DNA of 63,830 nt, counting the filler, from Squatina squatina (taxonomy: Eukaryota): assembly GCA_031763465.1 (NCBI GenBank). It is 4 parts of 4 records of this genome, joined end to end, with 100 filler letters (N's around TTAATTAATTAA, not from the genome) between each part and the next. Parts side by side here need not be neighbours in the genome. Positions count along the whole stretch, not along the records: positions 1 to 16,604 come from JARFOE010000058.1; 3 more parts are not named here. One strand, 5' to 3'. The position numbers were made by a program, and so were the translations under genes. Numbering within the stretch: position 1 is the first letter of the stretch; every line of letters begins with the position of its first letter. The notes under the pieces are model-generated. The model did no database searches and was not told the origin of the DNA. It worked only from the letters and a program-made list of their open reading frames with translations. Shown here in pieces: positions 2,755 through 63,557 of the stretch.

Positions 2755-3101
2755 CTGTGGCACAATCTTTGCCTACAAACTCTGGGCAGCCTTTGCCAAC
2801 GCCACCATCCGCCCACTGTGGTATGCGGCTGAACGCCGGCCTTTTGCAGGTGACGTCTCAGAACAATCTTGGATCTGGGATTCCTGCAGTGACTGCCAGT
2901 CAGGGTGATCGGACTATGGGAATTTATCCAAATAATCCTGGCAATCAACAGAACATCTACATACCATCATCTGGCATCAACATGCCTCTCCGGCCAAGCC
3001 AAAGTGCTTTGGGAATGAGATCAACCAGCCAGGCAGTGCCGAGCCAGGCTATAATCCGCCAAAGGACAGCAATCTCAGGGTTTACTGGCTCTGTACCAAA
3101 C
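2755..3101 (+). CDS. Mastermind-family coactivator, start of probable terminal coding exon (likely MAMLD1; truncated by gap)
   Basis: Strong polypyrimidine-CAG acceptor at 2754 and an open Q/P/S/G/M-rich frame. The segment MGIYPNNPGNQQNIYIPSSGIN resembles the MAML2/MAML3 C-terminal exon motif (recalled as MGMYGNLPCNQPNTYSVTSGMN in MAML2). It lies upstream of MTM1, as MAMLD1 does in human. Confidence 0.55.
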
Positions 3102-5070: not shown

Positions 5071-6270
5071 TGAAACAGAAAGGGTTTCATGAATTATTCT
5101 CATTAATGCACAGCATGGTATGTTATTGAAGCACACAGCCCAGGTTTGCTCTCCCGTCTGTGGAGAGTCAGTTGATCTCAACTGCAATAACGAGAGTCCT
5201 GCTAAGTGCGGTAGGGAAAAATATGTCAATGTCCCTGCCCACACGTGGTCACTGGTGGGTTACCGCTGTCCGTGGAACCATGCCCCAGTATCTCGCACTG
5301 CCTTTAGGAGAAGCAGAGAAAAGTGGCAGAAATGGGACCTTCATATGCCTGAAAAGTATGACTGTGTCACAGCTTATTTATGGGGACAGAGTCGGTAGGT
5401 TCAACTTTTGCCTGTCGTGCCTATCTATCCAGGTCTGATATTTTCGGGCAGTCGTAGCAAGCACTGTTCAGTTCTGTGTTGGATTCATTTGTTGCTCCTT
5501 CATGCAGGCTGCAGATACACATTTCAGGACATGATGCTTCACATTACGTGAGCATACATTAAGAACTGTTGTAAATTTAAGTTAACAAGTTGTGGAAGTG
5601 CAACCAATAGTTTCTGAAGCATTCCTTGTTGTTTTTGCTTTAGAACAAACTGCTTCAAAACAGGAACAGGCCAAAAGAAATGAGCTGCCATCTTAATTAT
5701 GAATCTGTTTAAAAATTATAGTATGTCTTGCAGAGTTACTCTAATCCTAAACAACTCTATTGTACAATAGTTGTAGTACTCTAGAGATGATTTTATACCA
5801 TTAGGGTATTGTGTCAAACAATAGATATTACCCATGCGATTTCCCCTGAATTACTGTACTGCAACATTAAGATTTCAAACCTCATTAATGATTGGTAGTA
5901 TGCCCTGAACTAGAGACCTGTCCATCATGGGAAGTCAGATTCATGACTTGCACCCTAGAGAGTATTGACTAATCAGCTGGTCCTGGCTAATGTTGTCGTG
6001 AACATTGCNNNNNNNNNNNNNNNNNNNNNNNNNNNNNNNNNNNNNNNNNNNNNNNNNNNNNNNNNNNNNNNNNNNNNNNNNNNNNNNNNNNNNNNNNNNN
6101 NNNNNNNNCATCAGAACTACTGCATCCATATGTGGATTAATCTTTTTTTAAAAAAAAAATGTATTCTCCTACACATTCAGGGTTTTTTTTTAAAAAGAAA
6201 AAAGTAATAGAAATGTACTTTCTTGTTAGCTAGCTTCTGCTAACTAATAGTTCCTTTTCATGCTTCATAG

Positions 6271-6365
6271 AAAAGGATGTGATCTACATTTGTCACTTTA
6301 ATGGACCTAAAAAGGGAGTGGTGTACATTACAAACTACAGACTTTACTTTAAGAGTGTTGAACTG
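6271..6365 (+). CDS. MTM1: Myotubularin 1, PH-GRAM exon (equivalent to human exon 4)
   Basis: AG/GT-bounded 95-bp exon: (x)[41 protein letters not shown] fits MTM1 better than MTMR1/2, and the size matches the recalled human exon. Confidence 0.88.
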
Positions 6366-9300
6366 GTAAGTTCTGATTTTTATTTTCTCACATTGTAGCA
6401 GGTCTTTAGTTTTTATATTCTACTGTGGTGAGAGTTACTGATGGAAGTCCATATCTTCATACCTCAAGTTAAACAACTGTGACCTCTTTGGCTGTATTCT
6501 CACTGACATTCTTGGTGTCACCAGTTCCCCATAGCTTATATAGAAAACTTGGACTCCTATTTAATGCCAGTGGCTTCTTCTCCGCTCAGTAACTTTATGA
6601 AGTCAAACTTTAATCAAGGCTTGAATACTACTCCCACATATGGGGAGGCTCTGTTTCTTTCGNNNNNNNNNNNNNNNNNNNNNNNNNNNNNNNNNNNNNN
6701 NNNNNNNNNNNNNNNNNNNNNNNNNNNNNNNNNNNNNNNNNNNNNNNNNNNNNNNNNNNNNNTAGAGATTCTACCCCAGTGCATTCTATTCAGGAGCATG
6801 ACATTTGAAGAATGAGATATATTTTCATGTAACATCACACTTCACAGTAGGCTTGCTGTTGATCTCTGGGTACACAAATCTAAGCTACTATAAAGTATAA
6901 TGAGGGCTGTTTAGATCAGATTTTTTTTGTAAGAATATGTCAATGTGTTAGTAATGCTAAACTGTTGCCAATGTAGCGGAAGTGAGTGGGGGAAAAAATC
7001 GAAGAAAATTTTCAGTTTCAGAAGCTCCAAAGACTAATGAGAATATTTGCTTAGAAAAATTACCAGGTGTTTTTGGTAGATGCTATGAGAACTTGCCCTT
7101 TTCAATTCTAATTGTATCAGACTTGCAGCTGGTATCCTCAATGATTTTTCTTTGGGATTAGAATGATGAGTGAAAACTGGGACTAATCTGACTGCCCCTT
7201 ATATAATTTACCTGGCATGAGGATAACCTTGGTCAAGCTCGGAAGTCTTTGATCAGCTCTTCACTAATGGAAACGCTTAGATTCATTCAGTCTTTGCTAC
7301 ATGCAATATTGTTGAAATTATGCTATTTTAACTGCCGTAAAACTAGCTGAATTTTAGTAAATGAGACATGACAGTAATACCTAGTGAGAAATCAAACCTT
7401 TTTCAATTCTGCTGAAATGTTGCAGTCTTTTGCCATGATATTTGTAAACTATATGCGGAGCACTGTTGTCCAACTTCCTCAATTTTTTTAATTGGGACTT
7501 TGTTTAATGCTCCATCATATTCTGCTGACCAAGAGTAAATCTGACTTATTTGGGAATGTGTCATACTTGATTTTGTTTTCACGTCATTTTTAATTTTATT
7601 CCGACTTCCCACCTCGTTTTCTGAAGGTGGACTTTCTGTCTGGAGTGAGGCTGCACTTTGGAAACTTACCAAGCACCCATTATTTGTGTGAACCTAGATA
7701 GTGGCAGCCTTTTGAACACGGGAAGGGGTAATGTGGCCAACGCAGTGTTTTCACCTGATGCCCACGTGCACTTTTCCATGAGAGGCAATTGTTTAAAAAA
7801 TCAGCAGGGGAATTCCAGATGACTTTTTTCCCACCCTCTCCCTTGCCAGCATGGGAATGCTGAGGCCAATTAGAATGTCCATGTAACACCACCCTGATTA
7901 AGGTTGACAAACTAAGAATAGGACAGAGATTTAATCCACGGCCTTTCTGGTACGTATAAGCTCTGCTCTATGCCGTGCGATCCTGTGCCCCCTTAGCCAG
8001 TAGATAAACAAATCTGAAATTTTAAACCTATAGAAGTATTCCAGCTTTAATACGCATATGGCTAATAATTTTTATATTGAAGAAAAGTCTGTGGTAAGCT
8101 TTTGGTTCATTTTTTTTAAAAAGCCACTAATCACTAAGAGAAGCTTCCTACTTTGGGAAGAAATCATTGTTTGTGCTGTTTCCTTTTCTGGGTTTGGCAG
8201 ACCAGTTTAGAAATGAGACAAATGCATGTATAGTGTTTTCTTAAAAGCTCACTACTTTGTTGCTTTACTATAGACAGAAGTACTGTTTTAATCGTTGTGG
8301 TTTAAACCGGGGTATTCAAGATATTGTAAATGTTATGCAAATGTAAACTTGGGCAGTATTGAAACTTGGTTCTTGTTCTGGAATGTTATATGTATTCAGT
8401 GTAACTGTAAACTTGAATAGCAAACCGAAATAGCTGAAACATGTATCGTGTGTGCAAGAAATATTTTCAAACCTAAGTAAATATGTTTTCTGGCATTTAG
8501 TTTCATTTATTTTTTGTTTTGTGGTAAACTACGAGCCAAAGTAACATCAACATTTTTACTATCGTCACAGGAGTTTAAAGATATTTAGCAGTATTCCCTG
8601 ATCATTGAATAATTCCATTCTGAGCAGAATTCCCTAGTCCCTGAATAATCCCATGCTGCCAGAGAACATCCACATCCGGGATGTTGTAATGTGCAAAGCT
8701 GCATGAATAACAGGAGACACTTCCTTGCGTTGCTAATGCGGAAACAAATCTCCAGTTCTGAAATGGTGCTGAAAGAACTCTATGCTTACACCATATAAAT
8801 GCATCAAAAGCTGGCACACATCTCTACATTTTGCCCCTGTCCTCTCTGGTTAACTTCTTGCTGGGGTGTCAGTTGCCCTCTGATATTTTGCCCAATTGAC
8901 TATCATTCATGCGTGAGCCAGAACCGAGTGTTTCAACGGGCTATTCAGTCACAAGGACACCCAGTCGAGCCCCTTCTTGGCGTCACCTGACATGTACTTC
9001 CACCATCGTTACTTGGTAATGATCATGAGCAGGGACTGAACCAATTTCTCCCTCCTTAATTAAGTAAAACTAAGGCTAATTTCTAATGCTGTATTGCTAC
9101 CACGTTGAAACCAGATAACATAGCACAGATATGGGAGCAGCCTGGTCTATGGCTCAGCTGGCCACTGGATAAGCTCACTGAGCCATTTCAAGAGTCACAT
9201 TTGATCAGGGCTTAAATTATACTATTTGAAACTTATTCACATAAATATCATTTGTACATTACAGCAGAAATACACTTGCGTAGTCAGGTTGTTTTTAAGA

Positions 9301-9528
9301 ATCTTCAGTCACAGAATTTTAATCTTAAATGTGATAGCACATTTGATTTCCTGTTAAATGCTAATTTCTGAAGAGCTTTTGCCTACAGAAAAACTGTGAC
9401 TACACATCAAAAGTAACTTAAATAAAAANNNNNNNNNNNNNNNNNNNNNNNNNNNNNNNNNNNNNNNNNNNNNNNNNNNNNNNNNNNNNNNNNNNNNNNN
9501 NNNNNNNNNNNNNNNNNNNNNNNNNNNN

Positions 9529-10115
9529 GATGTCATCACATCGCTCACCATTCGCCCGTGACCCCACTGTGAGCCCCCACCCCGGCGCCACTGCTGCTGA
9601 CACCGACAGGTTTCCTCTGGTGGCGCCAGGGGCCCTTAAAGGCACGTGGCCTGCACAGTTGTCCACCATCTTTTCTCATCAGCCGACGTTATTTTCATGC
9701 CGGCACCCTCAAAACATTTTTGAAACTTACCTGCTGGGCCCTCAAACCACTTCTGTTGGGCAAGCCTGTGGCCATTGCCTTTAAGGCAGGGGGCGGGGCT
9801 GTGGCTCGCACATGCGCGTTTGCGCCAGCAGCCTAGCTCACGCCATGCTACTGGCGCACCACGGCTGTGATATGGCATTGGTCGGGTCAGCGCCGGGTCA
9901 GCTCTGTGGCAACGCTGATTCTGCATTGCCACATTACGCTGGCCGGAAACTGCTTCAAAGACCCGAATGCCGCGAAGACACTCGGGGTTAAAGGATCCCG
10001 AATGCAGCACCCGATTGCAGACAGACCAATTGGGCACCCAGTGAGTTTGTGAATTCCAGTTGTTCCCGGTGAATGCTGATCCATGCTGGGGGCACCTAAA
10101 TGGGGAAATCAGCCC
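9529..10115. mobile_element. GC-rich non-autonomous DNA-transposon-like element (partial)
   Basis: Abrupt GC/CpG-rich block ending GAAATCAGCCC, similar to the termini of other GC-rich inserts in the window. No coding similarity recognised. Confidence 0.4.
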
Positions 10116-10139
10116 TCCTTCATCCTTCCAATTTATTTC

Positions 10140-10435
10140 TATCCATCCATATATCCATCCATACATCCATCCATCCATCCATCCCTCTCTCTCCCTTTCC
10201 CTCCCTCTCTCTACCTATCTCTCTTTACCTTTGTATTGCTCTCCCTGTATCTCTCCACCTATCTCTATCTTTGTATCTTTCTCTGTATCTCTCCACCTAT
10301 CTCTATCCTTGTATCTCCCTCTCTGTACCTCTCTACCTATCTCTCTCTATCTTTGTATCTCTCTCTGTATCTCTCCACCTATCTCTCTCTATCCTTGTTT
10401 CTCTCTCTCTCTTTATCTCTCTACCTATTTCTTTA
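10140..10435. repeat. (ATCC)n microsatellite followed by a CT-rich low-complexity tract
   Basis: Directly visible; it explains the three overlapping low-complexity ORFs. Confidence 0.9.
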
Positions 10436-10776
10436 TTTGCCTGAGTGCATCCTTTATATGTTGGGTTTCTTATAGATTAATTCCTGGGCGATTAGGCTCC
10501 TCCATTTGTTATCAAATTAAATGACCCAGATTTTGCTGAAATCAGCCAGCAATCAAAGCAGCTTTGCTGATGGAAAGCACTATCTTCAAACACTGAGTAA
10601 TGCAGCTTGCTGACTCCAACATGGTGTTGATTTTCTCATCTGAACTTTTCAGTTCGACTTTGCCCAGGAGGTCTGATTGGAATATTTCATGAAGTTACAG
10701 CAAGAAGATTTTGTACTTACTGAGGAAATTAACAAATATATTATGTTGTTCTAACAATTACTGTTGTTTCTTTCAG

Positions 10777-10860
10777 CAATTTTTTGCATTTGAAAATAAA
10801 GAAACTTATTGTGAAGATGGCTGGAAAGTTTATGTCCCAATTGAAGAATATAAGAGGCAG
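10777..10860 (+). CDS. MTM1: Myotubularin 1 exon (equivalent to human exon 7)
   Basis: TTTCAG/GTGAGT-bounded 84-bp exon QFFAFENKETYCEDGWKVYVPIEEYKRQ, versus recalled human [28 protein letters not shown]. Confidence 0.9.
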
Positions 10861-10944
10861 GTGAGTTGCTTTATGAATTGATGGTGGTCTGCTCTTGTTT
10901 CAATTGCGTAAGCTATTTTATATTGAATTTGCTTTCCGTATGTT

Positions 10945-11113
10945 TTAGCTTCTGGACGTCGGTCTCCTTTAGGAAAAATTCCAAATTTTCAGACATCCAG
11001 CATCAGTGTCCATCAACATCTCTCATTTGATGGAGTGAGGAATTCTCTCTCAGATCTGAAGAAGAGACTCGAGGAATTCTGTGAGGGGAAATTCAACAAA
11101 ATCCCTCCACATG
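10945..11113 (+). other. Teleost finTRIM/TRIM16-like exon fragment (coiled-coil to PRY linker), foreign to this context
   Basis: Open frame LASGRRSPLGKIPNFQTSSISVHQHLSFDGVRNSLSDLKKRLEEFCEGKFNKIPPH ends in a phase-1 GTAAGA donor. It closely resembles the motif I recall from catfish finTRIM proteins. Confidence 0.7.
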
Positions 11114-13150
11114 GTAAGAGGAGCTGTTCCTGCTGGAGAAACACAATGATGGACGTCTTTACTCGCTCTGTGACGGAGTGATGTCGAGGAGTCAGTCTTT
11201 ATTCCTGAGTTAGTTATAGAGTTGAATATAGACCAAAATTAGAGTATAGAATAAGAAATGCATATAAAAAAAGAAAATGCTGNNNNNNNNNNNNNNNNNN
11301 NNNNNNNNNNNNNNNNNNNNNNNNNNNNNNNNNNNNNNNNNNNNNNNNNNNNNNNNNNNNNNNNNNNNNNNNNNNNNNNNNNNNNNNNNNNNNNNNNNNN
11401 NNNNNNNNNNNNNNNNNNNNNNNNNNNNNNNNNNNNNNNNNNNNNNNNNNNNNNNNNNNNNNNNNNNNNNNNNNNNNNNNNNNNNNNNNNNNNNNNNNNN
11501 NNNNNNNNNNNNNNNNNNNNNNNNNNNNNNNNNNNNNNNNNNNNNNNNNNNNNNNNNNNNNNNNNNNNNNNNNNNNNNNNNNNNNNNNNNNNNNNNNNNN
11601 NNNNNNNNNNNNNNNNNNNNNNNNNNNNNNNNNNNNNNNNNNNNNNNNNNNNNNNNNNNNNNNNNNNNNNNNNNNNNNNNNNNNNNNNNNNNNNNNNNNN
11701 NNNNNNNNNNNNNNNNNNNNNNNNNNNNNNNNNNNNNNNNNNNNNNNNNNNNNNNNNNNNNNNNNNNNNNNNNNNNNNNNNNNNNNNNNNNNNNNNNNNN
11801 NNNNNNNNNNNNNNNNNNNNNNNNNNNNNNNNNNNNNNNNNNNNNNNNNNNNNNNNNNNNNNNNNNNNNNNNNNNNNNNNNNNNNNNNNNNNNNNNNNNN
11901 NNNNNNNNNNNNNNNNNNNNNNNNNNNNNNNNNNNNNNNNNNNNNNNNNNNNNNNNNNNNNNNNNNNNNNNNNNNNNNNNNNNNNNNNNNNNNNNNNNNN
12001 NNNNNNNNNNNNNNNNNNNNNNNNNNNNNNNNNNNNNNNNNNNNNNNNNNNNNNNNNNNNNNNNNNNNNNNNNNNNNNNNNNNNNTGGCTTAACAAATAA
12101 ATTCCTTGAAGAAAGTTTAGGATGACATACCCTCAAAGGCTTCAGACCCAAAGGATTTTTCATTTTTTCCTGTCACAAAGGCCAAGAATGTAACATTAAG
12201 AAATCAAATGCAACTTCAATGAGACCCATACAAGGAGGAAAAAAAGCTGGATCTCCTATGCTGAGAAATGATAATTTTCTACGCTGAGCACATGAAGATT
12301 GGTAATAATGAGCAAGAACAAAGCATGAACAGAATATGTTATGGGGGGGGGGGGAGATGAGTGATTGGGTATATGCAATAGCACAAGAGAACAATATTAT
12401 CCCAAAAATAGAATCAACACCTACTTATGTTGATAAAGATGATGAAGGTCAAAGGTTCTGAATAAGACTCTTTCATTTTCTAACTAATGTGCAAAACACA
12501 ATGCTACTTGTATTAGCCATTAATTGGGTTACATCACTTCTACAATCCATGGAATAGCTACTGTAGGAAATGGGAAGATCATAATGGTTCAGCAGCAGGT
12601 ACCTTTCTGAAACAGAGATTTAGGTGGACTGTTTATTGGTGAAACCATTATACTCATGCAATGTCCGAGCTTGGGAGAGTTTGCTCCCAGAGAGAACACC
12701 AGGGGGGAAAAGTAGTTCAACGCTTGTCCAAGGATTGTATTTTATACTCGAAGTTGAAGTGTTGAGAATGAAGATCTATATTCTGTGAAGCTACAGAATT
12801 AAAACAGAAAGCAGAGATAATCTTTGGGGTAAATTTGGGGTTGAGCTGGTGGACAACCAGATTTTATGGGGTAGTAATTGGACCTTGTTGCACCTTTTAC
12901 AGGCATAAAAGGGGTACAATTAGGCTTAATTTTTTTTTTTTAGCAAAGACCTGTGCTCCAAGGATGTCTGAAAAAGGTCCAACCTGAAACTGCGTTGGCG
13001 GATTCTGCAGGCAGTGGCCAAAAACAGGTGTTCGGCTCCTTACATATGTAAATGAACGGTCTAACACCTGTTTTAGGCCCACCTACAGAAATTCAATATC
13101 ACAGATGCCCTTGTTCAAATGGATAATGAAGATCCTACAGAATTATATAA

Positions 13151-14599: not shown

Positions 14600-14755
14600 G
14601 GCTTGCCTGATGAGAAGCGAAAATGGAGAATCACTAACATAAATCAGAACTATGAGCTTTGTGACACATACCCACCCATCTTAGTAGTTCCAGCCAGTGC
14701 CAGTGATGATGATCTGCGAAAAGTGGCAGCCTTCAGGTCCAAGGGTCGATTACCG
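14600..14755 (+). CDS. MTM1: Myotubularin 1 exon (equivalent to human exon 8; start of the phosphatase domain)
   Basis: CAG/GT-bounded 156-bp exon [52 protein letters not shown]. The ASDDDLR.VA.FRS segment is typical of MTM1. Confidence 0.9.
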
Positions 14756-16604: not shown

Positions 16605-16704
16605 NNNNNNNNNNNNNNNNNNNNNNNNNNNNNNNNNNNNNNNNNNNNTTAATTAATTAANNNNNNNNNNNNNNNNNNNNNNNNNNNNNNNNNNNNNNNN
16701 NNNN
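16605..16704. other. Synthetic scaffold-join linker (44N-TTAATTAATTAA-44N)
   Basis: Exact 100-bp structure repeated three times; the 12-mer puts stops in all six frames. Confidence 0.95.
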
Positions 16705-27382: not shown

Positions 27383-27975
27383 GTCAGTATCTGAAGGTGG
27401 TCAGTATCTCAGGGACGGGTCAGTATCTGAGGGTGGACAATATCGGAAGGACTGGTCAGTATCTGAGGGACTGGTCAATGTCTGAGGGACTGGTCAGTAT
27501 CAAAAGGTCAGGTCAGTATCGTTAGGTCTGGTCAGTATCTGAGGGACCGGTCAGTATCGGAAGTAACGGTCAGTATCAGAAGGAATGATCAGTATATGAG
27601 AGTGGTCAGTATCTGAAGGTGGTCAGTATCTCAGGGACGGGTCAGTATCTGAGGGTGGACAATATCGGAAGGACTGGTCAGCATCTGAGGGTGGACAATA
27701 TCGGAAGGACTGGTCAGTATCTGAGGGACTGGTCAGTATCGGAAGGAATGGTCAGAATCGGAAGGACTGGTCAGTATCTGAAGGAATGGTCGGTATATGA
27801 GGGTGGTCAGGATCTGAAGGTGGTCAGTATCTCAGGGATGGGTCAGTATCTCAGGGTGGACAGTATCGGAAGGACTGGTCAGTATCTGAGGGACTGGTCA
27901 GTACCGGAAGAAATGGTCAGTATCTGAAGGTGGTCGGTCTCTGAAGGTGGTCGGTATCTGAGGGTGGCCGGTATC
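27383..27975. repeat. Minisatellite of 17-19-bp units with a constant GGTCAGTATC core
   Basis: About 30 visible units, with spacers drawn from TGAAGGT/TCAGGGAC/GGAAGGACT/TGAGGGACT. Confidence 0.92.
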
Positions 27976-30872
27976 TGTTGAGCTGGAGGCATCAGAAATG
28001 AATTTGAGAAATGTGATGGATAAACAGTAACGGTGAGGCGGTGGGGGGATGACAGGAATAGAGTCAGGATGGGAAAATAGCTGGGAAGAAATAATTTTCA
28101 TGACTAGAATAACGATTCAATCTTGCTCTGATATCTGGAGGCTTCATTACTGCGTCTTTAACACGTATAGAAAGGGTTCAGTCACGCATTGCTCGGACTT
28201 GTCAAAATTATCGCAATAATATTCATCCAAATGGAAAAGTGTAGGAAAATTAAATCAAAAGATTAACCCAAATTATATCTGATGCCATAGTATGAAAATA
28301 ATTGTTAAATGGTCTGTGATGGCTGCATTTAGAAACTAGAATAATCTTTTCTCAGTCATTACTTTCAGAAATTACCTGCAGTAACAAGTCAATAATGAAC
28401 AAAAAGGGGTCATTTCAGTTCAATTGGACCTTGCAAAAGATCTTCTTCAATCAATCGCAGTGAAGCTCTGTCTCTGTTACCCTATTTTTCTTTCACTTNN
28501 NNNNNNNNTCCAGCAATTTTAAAAGTTAAATGTGTGTTTAGACAAAACTATGACCCAATCTAATGGAAACACAAGTGACTGCAAAATGAGAAAGCTAGCT
28601 TTGATTGTCAAAAATGGCCTTTTAATAAGAATGAAATGATCTTGTACTTTTGTGTGAAAAATGTGCTGAGATTTTCTACAACAAAGGTTGTCCAGAAAAG
28701 AAACATGAATTCTCCTGGTTGTGATGTGAGTTGAATGATGTGTAATATTATTTTGGGGGTCATTTCTTATAGTTGACCAGGCGGCATTCTGTAATAACAC
28801 TGACAGTTACCCTAACATTGTCCANNNNNNNNNNNNNNNNNNNNNNNNNNNNNNNNNNNNNNNNNNNNNNNNNNNNNNNNNNNNNNNNNNNNNNNNNNNN
28901 NNNNNNNNNNNNNNNNNNNNNNNNACTTTACCAACCATTACAATACAATTGTACTTTTATACAGTGCAGTAGCAGTCTTTCAGGCTAAACGTCCCACTTT
29001 TCCATGTGGAGATGATCCCCTGTGTGTTGTCTTTGAATCACACCAGGTGTAGTAATTAGAGGTGTACTATGTAAACTGTTTTCCTATGCGTGCTTCATGA
29101 TAATCATTAAAAATGTGTTGGGTCAGAAACGGAAGGTCAGAGACTGTTGCAAACGATTTATTTGACTTTTCAACGAACTGAAAAGAAAGATCAATTTCAG
29201 AGGACTCACACAAACATTATTTGATAATATTTAGCACTCCTCGCCTGTTGAATAGCCTGTTCTGCGGGTCGCTACAGCTTTCTCTTTAGATACAAACCCC
29301 CCAAATACTGCGGGTGCTGGAAATCTGAAATAAAACCGGTTACATTTCTAACTGTTCCAGTTCCGACGAAAGCTCATCGACCTGAAACGTTAACTCTGTT
29401 TCTCTCTCCACCTGACCTACTGAGCGTTCCCAGCATTTTTTTTGTTTTTGTTTCTCTTTAGCTGTTGAGCCGAGATGTTAATCGCCCTCCCAAGCCCCAA
29501 CACACCGAATTAAATGCAATGGTTGTATTGCGACTCAGCTCACCCAACGCAACGCAGCGAGCCTCGAGCCGACCCCAGTAGCTGGCGTCCAGCTTCCCAC
29601 CANNNNNNNNNNNNNNNNNNNNNNNNNNNNNNNNNNNNNNNNNNNNNNNNNNNNNNNNNNNNNNNNNNNNNNNNNNNNNNNNNNNNNNNNNNNNNNNNNN
29701 NNNNNNNNNNNNNNNNNNNNNNNNNNNNNNNNNNNNNNNNNNNNNNNNNNNNNNNNNNNNNNNNNNNNNNNNNNNNNNNNNNNNNNNNNNNNNNNNNNNN
29801 NNNNNNNNNNNNNNNNNNNNNNNNNNNNNNNNNNNNNNNNNNNNNNNNNNNNNNNNNNNNNNNNNNNNNNNNNNNNNNNNNNNNNNNNNNNNNNNNNNNN
29901 NNNNNNNNNNNNNNNNNNNNNNNNNNNNNNNNNNNNNNNNNNNNNNNNNNNNNNNNNNNNNNNNNNNNNNNNNNNNNNNNNNNNNNNNNNNNNNNNNNNN
30001 NNNNNNNNNNNNNNNNNNNNNNNNNNNNNNNNNNNNNNNNNNNNNNNNNNNNNNNNNNNNNTACATGAATTCCAGCTGATGTTTCCTCTCCCTAGTAAGG
30101 GAACACCGAAGCCAAGTCATCACCTCCTACTGACAACCTTGCAGAGATCTGCTAACACAGCACACGTCAGACATCAAACCTGCGACCTTGTGGGTCTGTA
30201 ATGTTTAACATCACTATGAACATAATCCTTAGCCACCGGGCCATTGAGTTGAACTCACAGAATCTATACTGTGTTTCAGGACCAGCCATCAATTCAAAAT
30301 GCATTGCTATTCAATAGCTGCGTTATAAATAAAATATATAGACATGGCTTCAGGGTTGAAAATTCTCCATATGAGTGTATGGGTTTGGAAAAGCTCCAAG
30401 CTGAATACACAAGGCTAGCTACAAACAATGCAGGGAGAACAAAGGGGCAGTATCTTTAAAGGACTGACAACCTTGGGTACTGCAGCAAATAGAAATGCTT
30501 CTTTGGCAATATTGTCCATAATGCAGTTAGGGACCCTAGTTCACTTCAAATATTGTGTATGTGTGTTTATTTTATCTGTGTATATGTGTGGTCTGACTAT
30601 TAGAGGCACCTGCATCTTCTGGAGCTCAGTGCTCCTAAGACTATATTTTTTGACTGCTGCTCACAGTTAGATCAGCATTCAATATTAAAGTCAGAAAATC
30701 ATTACAAATGAATAAAGCACGATTTAAAATGATGTGGGCGTTTTAATAAAGATCTCAAATGGAGCCCATTTTNNNNNNNNNNNNNNNNNNNNNNNNNNNN
30801 NNNNNNNNNNNNNNNNNNNNNNNNNNNNNNNNNNNNNNNNNNNNNNNNNNNNNNNNNNNNNNNNNNNNNNNN

Positions 30873-31025
30873 CGGGAACAGAGGCAGCCCCACTCCGAAT
30901 CTCCAACTCGGGGGGGCTGAAGATCACAAACTCTCGTGGATCCAGGACCCTTAGGTAAGTACGTAAATCTTTTTGCGATTGGAGGCATCCGCACGCAGGA
31001 AGCCTCCGATCGCAATTTCAGGCCC
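30873..31025 (-). mobile_element. MITE-like element end with a subterminal hairpin
   Basis: Reverse complement is homologous to 51894-52040. Confidence 0.7.
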
Positions 31026-31339
31026 AATATTTTGGGATACAGTTTATGAGTAATTTGGACACGATGTATGACAAGTGCAGTATGCTTGGAAGGAACAGGT
31101 GACTTTGGACCCATGGTTCCCAAAGCTTTCCAGTGCTGGCCATTTTTTCACTTCATGTCCTGGGTCTGTTGTGGACTAATTGCTAGAGATTGAATGCTAT
31201 GATTAGACAACAACTCTATTATCATTGTATCATGCATCTACCAGGATGGTGGGAGGTAAACTAGATGGACCGTGGTCTTTTTTCATCTAGTAATTCTATG
31301 AAGTGATCCTGTTCCGGTCCCAGCATAAATGTTGTGATT

Positions 31340-32070: not shown

Positions 32071-32170
32071 NNNNNNNNNNNNNNNNNNNNNNNNNNNNNN
32101 NNNNNNNNNNNNNNTTAATTAATTAANNNNNNNNNNNNNNNNNNNNNNNNNNNNNNNNNNNNNNNNNNNN
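32071..32170. other. Synthetic scaffold-join linker (44N-TTAATTAATTAA-44N)
   Basis: Same structure as 16605-16704. Confidence 0.95.
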
Positions 32171-32700
32171 TCTGGGGTGTCTCCATACTACCCAATATGT
32201 ATCTCTATAACCCGAGATGGTGTAGTCGTATCCCCTTGAGATTGGAAGTGGATATGCATGTTTTTTATGTGCGCTGCTTTGATCTCGTCGAAAGCCAGAT
32301 GAGCAACCACTTGGTGAGATGAGCCTTTATTTCATGGTACAGGAACATAAAAACCTTGTGATTGGAGTCCCTTATTTCAATCAGTGTAACTTGTCTTTGT
32401 GGAATGCAAAATCACAAACATTACATGTCCCNNNNNNNNNNCTCAGTCTTAGGCCAAAGTGCTTCAGTCTCCTGAAAATACATGCTTGTGTGGCATCCTG
32501 GCTGAAGTGACAGGACTGCTGGCACTTGTACTTTCAGTAGTCAATGTGTGAGGAAGATAGTAAGTTTAGAATAGGCTTAATGAGACTACCAGCATTTTCT
32601 GAATAGGGAATAGCTTTTGTTGGTGGTTGTGCATATTAGGGCATGGAAACTGCTGTATTTGAAGGACATCTTTGACTAATGTCATGAACTCCTTTCATAG

Positions 32701-32824
32701 GTCTTTGGCTCTGGATGAGAAGCGACGCCTTGAGGCCAGGATTGCTCAGCTGGAGGAGGAGGTAGAGGAGGAGCAGACCAACACTGAAATGGCCAATGAT
32801 CGCTTCAAGAAAGCCAGTCTGCAG
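32701..32824 (+). CDS. MYH9: Non-muscle myosin heavy chain IIA, rod exon
   Basis: TAG/GT-bounded 124-bp exon [41 protein letters not shown]. Confidence 0.88.
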
Positions 32825-33672
32825 GTATATGTCGCTTATTTTGCTAGTGTGGATTACAATGAGAATGTCAAAGCGCAGCTGAGAAACTTCTTAAACTGAT
32901 CTCAACAGACAAGAAATGGGGATTACAGAAAATGTTTCAGTACCCTGGCCAAATAATCCATTTAACTGTGCAGTATTATGGTTGCGTCAGGGAATGTTGG
33001 GCATAATTTTAGTAAACCGATGCTGCTGTGCAAGGTCACTAAACATCAGCGTGGATTAAAAATAAGGCTATAACAGTATATCGCTGGCTCTTTGACCCAC
33101 ACTCACTTCTGTCAAGGTGCCAAAGTGATAGTGAGCCCTGGGAAATGACCTTACTGCGTATATTTCACAGCCAGCCAGTACCCTAGAATATCTTCAATCT
33201 CATTGTAACTTGGAAACTGTTCTTTAATGCGGTAAACTTGTTCTACAAGTAGTCAGAGCATGATTAACAGCGGTATGTGGGTTGCAGAGAGTCCAGACAG
33301 TCAGGCAGACATTGTGAAATGCTCTTTTTAAATAAAAGGATGTTTCACTCTGTGACCCTTGAGTTGTCCATTGGATTTTTAAATTAAAACAATTGTTCTG
33401 AAGCCCTCACTGGGGAATTGGCTTGTGTGATTTACTGAACCTAAACCCTGGGAACTCTGAATTAATATCTATGAAATAACCCTGTACTCCACTACCCCTG
33501 TACTTTGGGGATAACTTGGTAGGAAAGTTGGTTTGTAGGAATATGCTGCTGTAGGGGAGGCGGGGGTGCGGGGGGAGGTTGGTCGAAGGCTTTCACTCCA
33601 TGCTCTCGAAGGAAACTGGGTGCGAGAACTAAAGCTGAAAATGTTTCACATCTCCTAATGATTGTTGAACAG

Positions 33673-33881
33673 GTTGACCAGATAAATGCAGATCTTTCTG
33701 CTGAACGCAGCAATGCCCAGAAGGCTGAAAATGCTCGCCAGCAACTAGATCGTCATAACAAGGAACTGAAAGCCAAGCTGCAGGAGATGGAGAATGCTGT
33801 TAGATCCAAGTACAAGGCAAACCTCACAGCACTGGAGGCCAAAATTGCTCAGCTGGAGGAGCAACTCGATGCCGAAAGCCG
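33673..33881 (+). CDS. MYH9: Non-muscle myosin heavy chain IIA, rod exon
   Basis: CAG/GT-bounded 209-bp exon [69 protein letters not shown](R), in phase with the previous exon. Confidence 0.9.
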
Positions 33882-35724
33882 GTACAAATAGATCAAAACA
33901 ATCGATGAAATATGCCAGGAAAGGGTATTTCAGGATGTGGGTGGGTGGGGGAAGTCCTGGTTTTAAAATGATTTGCAAGCTAAGTGTCCAAAGCAAATAA
34001 GGCCCATAATTTGGCCCAAGTGTAGGCAGCCTCGCTCAAGCTTTAAGGATGGTGGATTTGGGAAATGGAAATATTGCAGTTTAACATTTGGTGCTGTTAT
34101 GAAGTTGGAACGTGTTTTTCGAGCGAAGTTCCCTTTTGTTCTGATGGTGTTTTGGCATCATTGCCTCTGCACCACTTGTTCGGCACGGATGAACCTCTTT
34201 TTAAGCACAGAAATAACACCCAAAACATCAGATTGCTGATATGGTAGTCACAAGAGGGATATACATTTAGCACTGGTAACCAGGTGTATGCCCTTCAGTA
34301 CTGTTGGGGGTCGTCAGTGACAATACCTGGAGCCATTTTGAACAATCGGAATTAAAAGGACGCTGCTTCTGACCGCTGTGCACTCTTCAAAGGCCATTTG
34401 AACCACTTCTCCCCACCCTTTCCACTGCTTTAAAAAAAAACACCAGCAACCCATGGCCCAGCTCAGCTGCTACCCATTGTCCCAAAGCGGTCACTTTTTT
34501 TTTTAAAGATATTCTCGCATCCATGCTCTATCCTGCAGTCTTTCCACAAGAAAGTGACATGTGCAAAGGAATGCGTGGCCTATAGACAGGAAATAAAAGG
34601 CAAGTCATGTAGAACAGGAAAGGGGAAAAAGCTGTGCATGAGATTTTAAAGGCTCACCATTGAAAAAGTAAAAACTGACTTCTGAAGGATACATGTTAAA
34701 ATCACAATGATTGGCTGGTTTTTGCTGAAAGCATCCATCTGGTCTCAGTTGAGTTTGTTGGGCAACAGAAGTGCTCCAAAGCCCTTTAAGCCTTCTAATC
34801 ATAAAGCAAAGCAATAAAAGATGGTTGGAGGAGGCAAGGAGGAAACAGATACAGGTCTACAAGGCCTTGGTCACCAACTGGCAGCAGCCATCAACATTTT
34901 CACTCAAGGTCACAGCACACTTAGAATAACTGCAGAGCCAAAACTAGGAAAACCACCTTGCTTCAAAAGAGAAAAATCAATCAACTGAAAATAGAACGAG
35001 AAGCTGTCCAGGGGAATACCAATGTGCAAGCAAGACAAGCTTAAGATGTACTGAAAGGCAGCAGCAGCTATTTTGGCAGCAGCTTGAAGAGTCAATCCAG
35101 GAGGATTAGTCCGTCAGTTTAAAAAAGGTCTACTCTTGGGTAGAAGAGAAAAGCCTACTACAGAATCTCCAGGACATTATAGCCCACACTGACAGATTGT
35201 CAAAACTTTGAAATTGAGTGTTGCTCATTGCACACTGCAGCCATGCCCAAACTTGAGACGACATACATGATTCTCAAATGTCAATTACCTTTTGTATTTT
35301 TGCCTCAAGGTTCTGTAAACATCTTCCCAGACAGGAAGTATGAGCTGCAGAAGCACTGGGTTCAGTTTAATGGTACAATGACAACATTCTACTGTCTGAA
35401 AGTTGCTGCTTGAAGTTCTAATTTAATATGGATGAGACATTGACTAGATAAATTCATATTAACACCAATACTGAAGATGTAAANNNNNNNNNNNNNNNNN
35501 NNNNNNNNNNNNNNNNNNNNNNNNNNNNNNNNNNNNNNNNNNNNNNNNNNNNNNNNNNNNNNNNNNNNNNNNNNNNNNNNNNNAAGCACTCCAGATTGTA
35601 GGGAATTCAAGGTCCACATGTGAACATGGCCAAGAAAATATCCCACAAGCTTGATAATTTAGTCAGGACTGAATCATCCCTGTTCTGAGGACAAACTTTG
35701 TTTGTTTTCCCTTGAGTTTAGCTG

Positions 35725-36192
35725 TTTGAGGTGGTAATCTAATCGAGATGTTTAAAATGATGAAGGGATTTGACTGGGTAGATACGGAGAAACTATTTCC
35801 TCTGGGAGAATCCAGAATAAGGGAGTGCAATCTTAAAATTGGAACTATGCCGTGCAGGAGTGATATCAGAGAAAACGAAAGACTTGCATTTATATAGCAC
35901 CCTTTATGACCACCGGATGTCTCAAAGTACTTTACAGCCAATGAAGTACTTTTTTGAAGTGTAGTCAGGAAGCACGTTTTCACACACAGGGTAGTGGAAA
36001 TCTGGAGCTCTTTCCCCAAAAGGCTGTGGATGCTGAGTTAATTGAGATATTCGAGACCGAGATCGATTAGATTTTTGTTAGGTATGGGTATCCAGTGATA
36101 TGAAGCAAAGATAGCTAAATAGGATTGAGGTACAGATCCACCGTGATCTAATTGAATGGCGGAGCGGGCTGAATGGCCTACTCGTTCCTATG
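35725..36192 (+). mobile_element. CR1 LINE 3' end with a nested reverse SINE tail (~35870-35967)
   Basis: RGNLIEMFKMMKGFDWVD...FPLGESR reading is interrupted, then resumes RKHVFTHRVVEIWSS. Confidence 0.8.
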
Positions 36193-36633
36193 TGGCATTA
36201 ACTAAATCTCCTGGCCTCCAGTCCACTCAAGTGATGAACAACTGCAAGGAAATGTGGGCACATGTAAATCATGGTAGATGCTGTTTTATTTAACTGACTG
36301 AGGGCTGTGGTCAGTCAGTTCAAGCACCGTCCTTTGGAACTGGCTTTGACTCCAGTCCATGTCATTGATTTTTTTTTTAAATAAATAAATAAATCTGTTG
36401 CCAATTTTATTTAATTTGAGAGTTTGTCTAGTTCTAAACTAATTGCTGGTGGGCACGATTTCATTTGTAATCTGACACAGATGGCGAGAGTGGGGGCTCT
36501 GGCCTCCATTTTATCTGTGCCATAACTAAGCTGGAAGCACAGCATTTTGAAAAAGACCAATCTCCCATTCACAAGCTCTAAAATCGCTTGGCATTAAGTA
36601 CATACAGAAATGTTTACATGTGTTTCTTTGTAG

Positions 36634-36748
36634 GCGTGGAGATCTGCCATTCACTGTGCGCCGCACCACAGGTAGAAAACTGGACGAAATCTCAGATGAT
36701 GATATCGAAGGTCGTAGTGACGCCGGAGATCCCAAAGCTGCTGAATAA
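36634..36748 (+). CDS. MYH9: MYH9 last coding exon (non-helical tailpiece) with stop
   Basis: TAG acceptor; RGDLPFTVRRTTGRKLDEISDDDIEGRSDAGDPKAAE*. The RRGDLPF start and K.AE end are diagnostic of MYH9 versus MYH10/11/14. Confidence 0.9.
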
Positions 36749-38330
36749 TTGCCAAAATGCCAACCTACACTCGCAGTATAAATGCCACCATTGGGCCAAT
36801 TGTTAAGATTTTATAAAATGCATAGCTGTGTATTTTATGCTGCAGCTGGTAACATCAGGCCACTCTCCCTCCTTTTTCCCCCCCCCCCCCTCGGCTTTAT
36901 ATAAATTCTTTCTGAATAATTTTGTAATGTGCTAACAGCGGAGAACAGTTACTGCGTATCAGGAAGAACAAGGCTCATATGTGCAGCAGCGCACCTGGAT
37001 AAGGAGGGGTAAGGTTAAACCCCTACATAGAATTCTTTTTCTTCAAATTAGTCGCAGCTCTGCGATTCTCAGCTTGTGACCAGNNNNNNNNNNNNNNNNN
37101 NNNNNNNNNNNNNNNNNNNNNNNNNNNNNNNNNNNNNNNNNNNNNNNNNNNNNNNNNNNNNNNNNNNNNNNNNNNNNNNNNNNNNNNNNNNNNNNNNNNN
37201 NNNNNNNNNNNNNNNNNNNNNNNNNNNNNNNNNNNNNNNNNNNNNNNNNNNNNNNNNNNNNNNNNNNNNNNNNNNNNNNNNNNNNNNNNNNNNNNNNNNN
37301 NNNNNNNNNNNNNNNNNNNNNNNNNNNNNNNNNNNNNNNNNNNNNNNNNNNNNNNNNNNNNNNNNNNNNNNNNNNNNNNNNNNNNNNNNNNNNNNNNNNN
37401 NNNNNNNNNNNNNNNNNNNNNNNNNNNNNNNNNNNNNNNNNNNNNNNNNNNNNNNNNNNNNNNNNNNNNNNNNNNNNNNNNNNNNNNNNNNNNNNNNNNN
37501 NNNNNNNNNNNNNNNNNNNNNNAATTTTAAAGTTTCCTTTTTCCTATTGATGTGAATTGGCTCAGGAAGCAACAGAAAAGAACGAACTTCTAACTGGAAA
37601 CCTGTCTGTTCAGCTTGCCTTTGTCCATACCTTGTTTGCTGCTCAGCAAGTGTGCTTTCCCCCACACCCTCCTATTTTCAGTGGACTTGATTGTGACAAT
37701 CCTGTTTTTCTAGCCTTAGCTTTTGGGATCTACCACTGGAACGGTCCATTTTCATGGGAAGGGAGAGAAGGGAGTATACCATTTTTTCCGTCAATTAATA
37801 TTTTCAGGTAGTGACCTAGTTTGTAGACTTGGTCAGTCTCCAGAGCAGTGAACATGGGGATTCCTCCTGTTCTAAAAGTAAGGCTTCTAACCAGTACTGC
37901 CAGTTGTCTGTGACACAGCTTTCTGTGGTGCAAAATGCAAAACATTACAACTCTCACCGAAGCCAGTTATTTGTGAAGCTTGGTCCAGAGGGCTGTTTCC
38001 AGCTCCCTGGGCAAGAGGAGTACAGTGCTGGTACTGAGAGGAGACACACGCTCATCTAACAGTGCAAACAATGCAAGGCAAGCACAGCCAGTTCCAAGAC
38101 TTCTCTGCAAATGTTTTAATGTGCAATGGCATCCAAGAAGACTGAGAGAAATAGCATTGATATATATATTCATTTGTATCTAACGAGTATCGCTTCATAG
38201 TTGTATTGGAAACAGTTTTTGATCTGTTAGCTATACTGGATTTGTAAAATGACTTCCTTTCCTGTGATTCTTTTAAGGACCAAATATATATTTAAACAGG
38301 AAAAATATAATCAAGAAAAATTTGTTACTG
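36749..38330 (+). other. MYH9: Probable MYH9 3' UTR (gap-interrupted; end uncertain)
   Basis: Directly follows the stop codon; repeat-free with an AU-rich distal part. Confidence 0.45.
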
Positions 38331-38489
38331 GATTCTCATTTTTATATATATGTATAATGTAACCATTTGCTCTGACCAATCATGACCTTTTTTTCTGAGC
38401 ACTGGCCTCCAATTAAAAAAAAAAGCATTGGAAGAAAAAATCCAGACGGACCACCCGGCATCAGATTCAGACACGACAAAGACACACCC

Positions 38490-38877
38490 AACCCCTGCAA
38501 AGTCCTCCTCACTAATATTTGGGTACTTGTGCCAAAATTGGGAGAGTTGTTCCTCAGAATAGTCAAGCAACAGCCTGACATAGTCATATTCACATAATCA
38601 TACCTATTAGCCAATATTCCAGACTCCTCCATCTCCATCCCTGGGTGTGTCCTGTCCCACCGGCAGGACAGACCCACCAGAAGTGACAGCACAGTGGTAT
38701 ACAGCCGAGAGGGAGTGATCCCGGGAGTCCTCAACATTGACTCCGAACCTCATAAAATTTCATGGCTTCAGGTCAAGCATGGGCAAGGGAGCTTCCTGCT
38801 GATTACCATCAACCACCCTCCCTCAGCTGATGAACGCCACTTGAAAACAGCACTGAGGGTAGCAAGGGCACAGAATG
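38490..38877 (+). mobile_element. LINE ORF2 endonuclease N-terminal fragment (second LINE family, degenerate)
   Basis: LLTNIWVLVPKLGEL...QQPDIVIFT*SYL...IPGCVLSHRQDR...VVYSRE...ISWLQVKHGQG..PPSADE follows the APE domain pattern. Confidence 0.75.
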
Positions 38878-39465
38878 NNNNNNNNNNNNNNNNNNNNNNN
38901 NNNNNNNNNNNNNNNNNNNNNNNNNNNNNNNNNNNNNNNNNNNNNNNNNNNNNNNNNNNNNNNNNNNNNNNNNNNNNGAAAGTCCAGGGTGGGTCAGAGA
39001 CGGTTCTGTTGAGTGGATGAAGATCAGGCTCCTGCACGTATCTGTGATTGATGTCTGATGGTGGACATATGATTGGTATTTAGATGGTGACACTGAAGGA
39101 ACGCATTGAATGTAAAGAGGTTTCTCTCCCAGGAAGGTTGTGGGAAGGATATGGGGTTCATGTGTAGATGTGGTTTATAAGCAGCCTTCCGAGCTGGCTG
39201 ATTGGCGGACGCTGAAACTGCGCTCCGTGTTTGCCGCCCGACAGCGCCAAGCAGGTTCTGTGGCCAAATTCAAGATCAATGTCCAGAGCGACTGATTACA
39301 CGGGCAGCCGGCTGTGTCGTGTCACGGAGGGCAAGGGGGGAGGAAGCCTCTCGTTGCCCCACAGCCCCTGAGTTGCCGTGTCCCCCTGAACTCTTCGCCT
39401 GTCCCGCGAGGGGGGGTGGCACTCCGCCCGGTGATGATGTCTTAAAAACTGTTTTTCCTCTCCAG

Positions 39466-39571
39466 CGAGAGAAGCCCAACGGCGCTGGAGTCGGTGGGTT
39501 TGGGCGCCAGCGCGCGCACAGTGGCGGGCATCTGCATGCTGCCCGTGACCGTGGTGAAGACGCGATACGAG
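39466..39571 (+). CDS. SLC25A38: Mitochondrial glycine carrier exon (3' part of human exon 4)
   Basis: TTTTCCTCTCCAG/GTGAGT-bounded 106-bp exon [35 protein letters not shown], including the SLC25 signature position PxTxxKTR. Confidence 0.88.
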
Positions 39572-40718
39572 GTGAGTTTTCACACCACATCCTGTCTGGA
39601 GGGTTTTAATGGGTGGCAACCCAGCGAGGTGGGTGGGGGGAGGGGGGCACAGGTGGAGATGTGGTTGGTGCAAAGACAATTGGGGCGGCCAATTCGGGTT
39701 TTTAAAGTTTCTCGCGCTAAGTGCTGAATTTAGTGCTGGAAATGGGACTCCGAAAATTTTCAGTGAAGCCCCCAATTAGCCACTTTACAATTTGAGCGTT
39801 CAAACATATGCAAACTTTAGCAGTAAAGGGACCATAGTGAACTGACCTATTCTTGGTGTGGATGCAAATTCCACAGTTTGCTTCCAACCTGAATTCCAGA
39901 GTTTACTTGCAACCTGACAGGCCACTTAAGNNNNNNNNNNNNNNNNNNNNNNNNNNNNNNNNNNNNNNNNNNNNNNNNNNNNNNNNNNNNNNNNNNNNNN
40001 NNNNNNNNNNNNNNNNNNNNNNNNNNNNNNNNNNNNNNNNNNNNNNNNNNNNNNNNNNNNNNNNNNNNNNNNNNNNNNNNNNNNNNNNNNNNNNNNNNNN
40101 NNNNNNNNNNNNNNNNNNNNNNNNNNNNNNNNNNNNNNNNNNNNNNNNNNNNNNNNNNNNNNNNNNNNNNNNNNNNNNNNNNNNNNNNNNNNNNNNNNNN
40201 NNNNNNNNNNNNNNNNNNNNNNNNNNNNNNNNNNNNNNNNNNNNNNNNNNNNNNNNNNNNNNNNNNNNNNNNNNNNNNNNNNNNNNNNNNNNNNNNNNNN
40301 NNNNNNNNNNNNNNNNNNNNNNNNNNNNNNNNNNNNNNNNNNNNNNNNNNNNNNNNNNNNNNNNNNNNNNNNNNNNNNNNNNNNNNNNNNNNNNNNNNNN
40401 NNNNNNNNNNNNNNNNNNNNNNNNNNNNNNNNNNNNNNNNNNNNNNNNNNNNNNNNNNNNNNNNNNNNNNNNNNNNNNNNNNNNNNNNNNNNNNNNNNNN
40501 NNNNNNNNNNNNNNNNNNNNNNNNNNNNNNNNNNNNNNNNNNNNNNNNNNNNNNNNNNNNNNNNNNNNNNNNNNNNNNNNNNNNNNNNNNNNNNNNNNNN
40601 NNNNNNNNNNNNNNNNNNNNNNNNNNNNNNNNNNNNNNNNNNNNNNNNNNNNNNNNNNNNNNNNNNNNNNNNNNNNNNNNNNNNNNNNNNNNNNNNNNNN
40701 NNNNNNNNNNNNNNNNNN

Positions 40719-40870
40719 TGTGGGAGCTTGCTGTGCGTGAATTGGCTGCCACGTTTCCTACATTACAGCAGTGACTACAGTTTTTAAAAAGTACCTACTT
40801 GGCTGTAAAGCGCTTTGGGACGTCCTGAGATTGTGAAAGGCGCGATAGAAATCGTAAGTCTTTTTTTGTT
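40719..40870 (+). mobile_element. DeuSINE/SacSINE-like SINE tail
   Basis: TGTGGGAGCTTGCTGTGCG...GCTGTAAAGCGCTTTGGGACGTCCTGAG...GGCGCGATAGAAAT. Confidence 0.8.
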
Positions 40871-41049
40871 TCATCACTTGGGCATTTCTGTGATAGCTGA
40901 TGAGGTGCTGTGTAAATCTTTCTCACTTTATGAAACCATCACTTCTTTAACTAGATGTGTGTGTGTGTGTGAGGAGGGTGGGGAGAAGAGGGTGTGAATT
41001 CAGGAAACGGAATGAGAAAATGATTCACGGTATGTGTCTGCATCTGCAG

Positions 41050-41218
41050 AGCGGGAAGTATCGGTACGAAAGCGTATTCGGTGCCTTGAGAAATATCTAC
41101 AAGACCGAGGGCACGCGGGCGCTCTTCAGCGGGCTGACAGCTACGCTCCTGCGCGATGCCCCCTTCTCCGGGGTTTACCTGATGTTCTACACACAGACCA
41201 AGAAAGCGGTGCCTGAAG
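41050..41218 (+). CDS. SLC25A38: Mitochondrial glycine carrier exon (equivalent to human exon 5)
   Basis: CAG/GT-bounded 169-bp exon [56 protein letters not shown]. Confidence 0.93.
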
Positions 41219-42354
41219 GTACGTGTGGGTGTCAGTGTTGCTTCGACGAAAGGTACTTTGGGGGGGTGTTTGATATGGACGGCGGTTGAACGCTCCTGCT
41301 TTACAAGGTGTGATATTCCAGCACCATGGGACAAGCAAGGACCCACTTCTCACCGTTGTATCCTGTGCGCCCCCAAAATCTTTAAAGGGGGCAACTGATC
41401 AGTGGAGCCAGTGTTCTTCCTGTCTACCTTTCCATTATAAATTCCTATGTAAACTTGTTATACTGTAATTACACCCTCCTGCCAGGGAGGGTGCTGAGGA
41501 GCCACCAGTGATTAGCAGGTGGAACTGCAGTGTGACATGGGCTGTTTCCATTATAACTGTGGACACAGGAATTTGTGCTGGAAATATGAAAAGAAGGAAC
41601 AGAATGTCTGACATTAAAATGCGTCCGGTTTAAGTCAGCACACCCTGATCCAAATATACCTCCCCCCCCCACCCCCCGCAAACCTTTCGAGACTGAGAGC
41701 GAACTCCAATTTTTTCCTTTTCTCTCCTGAAGAATCTGCCTGTCACTTGAGGTGGGGGGGGGTGACATTCAATGGGGGTAATGTTCACTGAGTTTGTCCA
41801 CATTCACCATCTTGCCCATTCTTGACTCCAGACACTGAATATCAGTGGGCTGTTCGACCATGATCTTACTGTGTGCAAATTGGCTGCTGAGTTGGAAGAG
41901 ACTCACATACTTAGAATGCGCTGCCTGAAAGGGTGGTGGAAGCAGATTCAGTAGTAATTTTCAAAAGGGAATTGGATGTATACATAAAAAGGAAATATTT
42001 TCAGGGCTATGGAGAAAAATGAGGGGGAGTGGGACTAACTGGGTAGCTCTTTCAGAGAGCCAGCACAGACAAAATGGTCCGAATGGCCTCCTGTGCTATA
42101 TGATTCTGTGACTTNNNNNNNNNNGACAGAGAGAAATAGAGTGGGAAATGTTGTCCTAGCAATGTACAATGGGAAATATTGACCAAAAACCTTGACCACA
42201 AGAAGTAGGGTTTGTGAACAGGAAGCGTGCACCCTATACCAATGGCTATAGAGAGGTGGCAGATGTGTTCATTGATTGGGGGTAGTTGGGATCACAGAAG
42301 GGGGTGACTGAAATGCTTTGTGTGGTCATATCTAATCTTGCTTTTATCTTTCAG

Positions 42355-42376
42355 ACCGGTACGACACACCAATTGT
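42355..42376 (+). CDS. SLC25A38: SLC25A38 next exon start, cut by gap
   Basis: Strong CTTTTATCTTTCAG acceptor. The phase matches the previous exon and gives D-RYDTPIV, versus recalled human DQVDATLI. Confidence 0.55.
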
Positions 42377-42476
42377 NNNNNNNNNNNNNNNNNNNNNNNN
42401 NNNNNNNNNNNNNNNNNNNNNNNNNNNNNNNNNNNNNNNNNNNNNNNNNNNNNNNNNNNNNNNNNNNNNNNNNNNN

Positions 42477-42775
42477 CCCTGTACAACTGCAACAAGACAT
42501 CCCTGCTCCTGTACTCGAATCCTCTTGCTATGAAGGCCAACATACCATTTGCCGCCTTAACCGCCTGCTGCACCTGCATGCTTACCTTCAGCGACTGGTG
42601 CACAAGGACACCCAGGTCTCGTTGCCATTCCTGCTGAATTTTGTGATGTTGTCGGTGTCTTCTACTGTGAAGACAGGTACAAAATATTTGCTCGATGCGT
42701 CTGCCATTTTGAGAGTTCCTGCTGAATCTGCTTCGACCGCCCTTTCACTTAGTGCATTGCCGATCATAACAAGTC
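42477..42775 (-). mobile_element. Mosaic of CR1 LINE fragments
   Basis: LKVSMQVQQAVKAANGMLAFIARGFEYRSRDVLLQLYR (RT C-terminus), KMADASSKYFVPVFTVED (EN-RT linker) and ERAVEADS (ORF2 end) are juxtaposed. Confidence 0.8.

Positions 42776-63410: not shown

Positions 63411-63557
<147 letters not shown>

Follow-up and report, generated by a model that had tools for sequence, protein, structure and literature searches.

In an assembly of the shark Squatina squatina, a 367-base piece of present-day catfish DNA is joined without a gap to shark sequence, 55 bases into an intron of the myotubularin gene MTM1. This finTRIM piece is most likely not a real feature of the shark genome; with a probability of about 0.9, catfish reads were joined to the end of a shark contig, either via a chance shared word or via a chimeric library molecule. 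In agreement with the original prediction, we infer that contamination or a chimeric contig is likelier than a transfer, and this preference is inferred rather than observed because the two sides of the junction do not occur together in any listed run. The window (the whole stretch of DNA that was analysed, 63,830 nucleotides) is made of four separate records, so that the order across records is meaningless. The features discussed here are the following.

6270..6365, + strand: earlier MTM1 exon, shark type (tblastn of myotubularins P0121 and P0122)
10777..10860, + strand: MTM1 exon of 84 bases, shark type (acceptor and donor located; residue identities)
10861..10915, + strand: first 55 bases of the MTM1 intron (GTGAGT donor at 10861; shark by contiguity with the exon)
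10915..10916, no strand: junction of shark and catfish sequence, without a gap (aligned run contigs)
10916..10941, + strand: catfish-like stretch upstream of the exon (covered by contigs of aligned runs)
10942..11113, + strand: 172-base exon of catfish finTRIM type, with the coiled-coil end and the linker (phase 0 to 1; protein alignments)
10993..11113, + strand: hypothetical cryptic exon, 121 bases (TTTTCAG at 10986-10992, donor at 11114)
11114..11282, + strand: beginning of the following catfish intron (GTAAGA donor at 11114-11119; identity to run X1; read-through of P0107)
11283..12085, no strand: gap of 803 N, which conceals the far end of the catfish piece
14600..14755, + strand: following MTM1 exon, of shark type (Pfam Myotub-related; on a later contig within the first record)
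16605-16704, 32071-32170 and 49344-49443: spacers between the four records, each with a 12-base word between two stretches of 44 N

The catfish exon lies in a frame that is open from 10927 to 11181 and that includes the peptide originally predicted at 10945-11112. In a protein search with the 56-residue frame, 291 of 316 candidates matched at E<=0.01, and the best 120 of these 291 were all catfish TRIM16/TRIM25-like proteins, from eight catfish genera and up to 88% identical, with no chondrichthyan among them. Five Clarias copies share 49 of the 57 residues of the piece. The Pfam model TRIM_CC matches 10942-11113 with an E of 4e-6, its 27.1 bits being below the cut-off of 30. The names given in the sources are TRIM16-like or TRIM25-like, with one "finTRIM family, member 14." These matches bear out the original prediction of an unbroken frame that ends at a phase-1 GTAAGA donor, is followed by intron-like sequence up to the gap, and resembles the linker exon of catfish TRIM16-like finTRIMs.

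Exon borders were set from column counts over 115 catfish copies, and splice sites solely from protein alignments. In catfish proteins the exon starts at 10942 (V/A-L-A-S-G), one codon before the frame first proposed, and at its end (11113), 87 of 112 catfish copies continue with the next exon downstream. The residues that the open frame would encode at 10930, 10936, and 10939 are present in 1, 0, and 0 of 114 catfish copies, which indicates that the stretch is noncoding there; positions 10916-10941 are likely the 3' end of a finTRIM intron. The letters at 10940-10941, where the protein alignments imply an acceptor, are AT and not AG, and among the rows listed the aligned run contigs do not differ from the window at these two positions. 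In this catfish subfamily the acceptor may depart from the canonical AG, or it may have been mis-modelled.

Downstream of the donor, the gene model of Hemibagrus P0107 reads into the intron and matches the window at 19 of 20 residues, which indicates that the intron part is also catfish. Nucleotide evidence comes from record 8 of run X1, which is identical to the window over 11144-11282 (139/139, 0 gaps), extends past the contig end, and has a depth of 18.1, similar to that of other single X1 records. Part of the piece is thus identical to the DNA of a living organism with a catfish paralogue family, and divergence at 11144-11282 is limited to 2.1% (95%). Conservation of intron sequence between sharks and teleosts at such a level is implausible.

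The piece is a fragment of a finTRIM-type gene and not a gene. When the 120 catfish TRIM proteins were compared with the whole window, only this one place was matched and no other TRIM exon was found; nor was a second catfish piece found in the window with these TRIM proteins as sole queries. The RING, B-box, coiled-coil, and B30.2 domains that define a finTRIM when present in one gene do not occur together within the window, while the near relative P0011 carries all finTRIM domains according to Pfam. The piece does agree with finTRIMs in its exon plan (172 bases, same phase, position of the fourth exon) and in the teleost-restricted, multi-copy distribution of its relatives (best 120 of 291 matches, eight catfish genera). 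As a side observation, a metagenome scan with the Clarias protein P0009 gave 595 pattern matches, with one locus confirmed (L001, 42%), in which positions 1251-2345 hold an uninterrupted 364-residue fish TRIM frame, that is, fish DNA in a metagenome record; this locus is uninformative on the catfish intron.

The sequence around the piece is of another kind. The MTM1 exon at 10777-10860, labelled exon 7 in the original prediction, is identical to the myotubularin of Chiloscyllium (P0122) at 26 of 28 residues, versus 11 of 28 for the teleost Scleropages (P0123); the values are 23/28 for an unnamed transcript protein and 14/28 and 12/28 for two frogs. For the exon that follows (14600-14755), with 49 matches from 59 candidates, the identity is 98% with Chiloscyllium and 73% with Scleropages. 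Further upstream in the same record, all 12 matches (of 135 candidates) of a mastermind-like exon at 2757-3101 are from cartilaginous fishes, with 75-94% identity. Their source name is mastermind-like protein 2; the position before MTM1 suggests, by synteny, that the exon presumably belongs to MAMLD1. Together, these identities support a shark origin of the flanks, as had been predicted.

The border between the two kinds of sequence was placed with sequencing runs. A search with 10560-11282 as query listed 24 runs, 20 of which hold part of it, and four of the 24 (X1, X2, X6, and X11) were aligned; the small shares in the other 20, which include every run marked as RNA, carry no weight as evidence. 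Record 9 of X11 agrees with the window from 10916 onward, after 194 letters that are unlike it; X2 has a loose end of 75 letters before 10916, record 1 of X1 starts at 10916, and other catfish paralogues fit from 10929-10930. These fits place the junction at 10915/10916. The original prediction had foreign sequence begin at about 10945, some 85 bp past the MTM1 donor, and this start has to be moved about 30 bases upstream.

Each of the 24 runs has fewer than half of the words in 10560-11282, the best share being 0.24. In all four aligned runs the depth is 0 over 10440-10903, and none of the 32 pieces listed for them, with 346 more beyond the listing, crosses 10915/10916. The catfish family is multi-copy: each of these runs has 79-121 records on the piece, from bin 10904-10932 onward, and 37 of the 120 proteins listed come from one species. 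None of the four covers the shark part of MTM1, and the runs appear to be catfish themselves; they are provisionally taken as such because they hold many paralogues and no MTM1 part. At the visible junction, the far end being in the gap, there is no arm pair, direct repeat, terminal repeat, or target-site duplication. The piece has no word of 14 or 16 bases in common with the rest of the window, and four of 12 bases; the one at 10916 was considered and rejected as chance.

Within the exon, the piece is not identical to run X1. It differs from all X1 contigs in at least four places: none of these contigs has the letter of the window at 10970, 10979, 10980, or 11087, which indicates that the donor was not the individual of X1. 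Among 115 catfish copies, four of its residues are seldom found (in 0, 1, 1, and 3), including the G at 11086, found in none, and the I at 10978, found in one. Its first residue has the form typical of Neoarius (35/36), and at two further residues it has the form typical of Clarias (27/30 and 29/30). A quick tree was built from 107 rows, namely the window and 106 distinct segments of 114 with at least 35 identities and without shark rows. In this tree the piece nests among catfish genera; it is grouped with 24 Clarias rows, with a support of 92 (below the 95 mark) and an end branch of 0.37. The differences in the exon could come from an allele or species outside the sample, from paralogues merged into a mosaic during assembly of sparse reads, from read errors, or from slight decay after a real insertion.

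The assembly of the shark genome is fragmentary. The window holds 49 contigs, with an N50 of 1363 bases and a longest contig of 3446, separated by 29 gaps of exactly 100 N and by several sized gaps of 201-803 N. For residues 71-150 of myotubularin P0122, the best E is 0.18, elsewhere in the window, and about 70 myotubularin residues expected between the exons at 6270 and 10777 (6366-10776) are without a credible match, so that whole MTM1 exons are absent from the assembly. Such an N50 and such absent exons are in line with the low-coverage, fragmentary kind of assembly that a contaminant-derived chimeric contig presupposes. The piece lies in the first record, at the end of contig 9529-11282, a contig without any N. 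This position is a weak argument, as 56% of contig bases are no farther than 367 bases from a contig end.

Several observations concern the other records. In the 17-kb record at 32171-49343, Pfam models identify exons for a myosin tail, a mitochondrial carrier, and a guanylate cyclase; RPSA-like (about 43020-43112) and ubinuclein-like (about 46024-46860) exons are presumably also present, the latter stretch being without a Pfam match. The contigs of this record are likely ordered with collapsed distances, because the number of genes is too high for the length. A perfect 42-base palindrome seen by eye at 52111-52152, either a hairpin element or a fold-back artefact, stands at the end of a repeat, a further copy of which lies near 30873-31030. 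Three minisatellite arrays (27383-27980, 49010-49343, and 50700-50882) each touch a gap or a record end. Finally, a leucine-rich-repeat exon at 63432-63548, for which the Pfam LRR models remain below their cut-offs, is one that we take to be SCRIB/LRRC1-like.

The favored scenario is that trace catfish reads were present in the data, whether by carry-over between pooled libraries, by co-handling, or from prey. A multi-copy family of near-identical copies would be the first to assemble from such traces, possibly as a mosaic of paralogues, and where shark coverage was exhausted, the contig would have been extended into catfish reads. Two routes could have led to the join. The preferred one, which has about an even chance overall, is an AT-rich word, about 21 bases long and shared by chance, at 10916, where 17 of the first 21 bases of the piece are A or T. 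Under a model of independent bases, 1 kb of foreign DNA is expected to share 0.7-2.1 21-mers by chance with a genome whose size is assumed to be 1-3 Gb; a shared word of 31 bases is expected at about 1e-6 per kb, that is, not at all, so this route needs an assembly step with short words, which is assumed here. The other route, somewhat less probable, is a single chimeric library molecule; a length of 367 bases is about that of one short-read fragment. By either route, the catfish piece would be functionless, and nothing would interrupt the true MTM1 intron. Contamination should bring near identity to a living species, and this is found over 11144-11282. Against it, the private letters, the rare residues, and the long end branch also fit decay after a real insertion.

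A real insertion of this kind, in which catfish genomic DNA would have entered the MTM1 intron of the shark germline very recently, through end-joining repair and without a transposon, is improbable. It would explain a gapless join on a single contig, and the AT that replaces the acceptor AG before 10942 could be decay, like the private changes at conserved sites. Published transfers between fishes likewise retain introns; three of the 19 events have catfish donors, and immune genes predominate (Policarpo et al., 2025, PMC12107551). The lack of any run that holds half of the query or bridges the junction is absent support rather than disproof, but the 139/139 identity leaves almost no time, a single exon offers nothing to select, and the published cases are each found in independent genomes, whereas the present one stands on one fragmentary assembly (PMC12107551). 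Two signs by which transfers are recognized are seen here, a divergence far below that of the species split and extending into introns (139/139), and a conflict between trees together with a non-syntenic place (nesting among catfishes, inside MTM1); contamination would produce both.

Slightly less probable still is that the join is real in one cell or class of molecules and not inherited, or that it arose from later gap filling or scaffolding with a contaminant contig. The presence of sized gaps beside the gaps of 100 N suggests a multi-step, probably reference-guided build, which would give room for a later join; at the join itself, however, there is neither an N nor a duplicated overlap. The idea that the piece is the shark's own TRIM16/TRIM25-like exon, or a repeat resembling the catfish form, could draw on the TRIM16- and TRIM25-like sequences that exist in sharks (PMC2657112) and on shark proteins possibly present among the 171 weaker matches beyond the best 120 of 291, but it is very improbable, being refuted in practice by the intron identity, as well as opposed by the nesting among catfish genera, by the read-through of P0107 (19/20), and by the zero MTM1 cover and 94 paralogous records of X1, which make it unlikely that X1 is a shark.

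The original prediction further held that, if the join were real, an internal TTTTCAG could define a 121-bp frameshifting cryptic exon in MTM1. The sequence elements exist as described, but the AG sites at 10948 and 10972 are better placed with regard to their pyrimidine tracts (0.80 and 0.73, versus 0.60 for the TTTTCAG site), and their use would lead to stops within 8 and 22 codons. Any inclusion of the catfish exon would be predicted to truncate myotubularin, which is relevant only if the join is real.

If the piece is an artefact, as we consider most likely, it flags teleost DNA within host contigs of this assembly, which scaffold-level contamination filters would miss, and it makes further fish-like finds from this genome doubtful. 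Were it real, the known cases of gene-bearing transfer, from teleost to teleost, would be joined by one into a shark: part of a gene of an antiviral family, finTRIM, introns included, would very recently have crossed the split between bony and cartilaginous fishes into MTM1 without a transposon, and would be seen before fixation. A literature search, the coverage of which leaves out most subscription journals, found no report of teleost-to-shark gene transfer.

Compared with known systems, the exon of the piece has the same borders, by protein alignment, as the genes of Clarias (P0009, P0011, and P0012) and Hemibagrus (P0107). It differs from catfish TRIM16-like and TRIM25-like genes in being a single exon, without RING, B-box, or PRY/SPRY in the window, and in its rare residues at four conserved columns. 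According to passages of van der Aa et al. (2009, PMC2657112), zebrafish finTRIM (ftr) genes follow a six-exon plan, in which a fourth exon of 154 bases comes after two coiled-coil exons. The exon of the piece has the same position and phase and is 18 bases longer (172 vs. 154). The same passages describe the finTRIM family as teleost-specific and not found in an early elephant shark genome, and they set membership by RBB and B30.2 trees, while the piece carries neither domain set (PMC2657112).

Among transfers, passages of Policarpo et al. (2025, PMC12107551) report 19 events among 242 ray-finned fishes, mostly of immune or pore-forming genes. As in these cases, the present one has a gene of an immune family, a catfish donor, a likeness that reaches into introns, and a non-syntenic place. 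The published transfers, however, are genes found in independent donor and recipient genomes, from teleost to teleost and with 59-95% coding identity in the table rows, whereas the catfish piece is part of a gene, comes from a single assembly of a shark, and includes a stretch of 100% identity (PMC12107551). The word shark is absent from the text of that study. The piece thus has the attributes of a transfer that are common to contamination; the one that separates the two, presence in independent genomes, was not seen among the 24 listed runs.

Among contaminations, passages of a study of 43 arthropod assemblies indicate that contaminants far outnumber transfers (PMC7003083). As here, the contaminating sequence was near-identical to a living species and the assembly fragmentary. 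In that study a gene counts as a contaminant if its scaffold carries no host genes, whereas the catfish piece is on a host contig, so that the synteny test of that study, as those passages give it, would pass the piece as a transfer candidate (PMC7003083).
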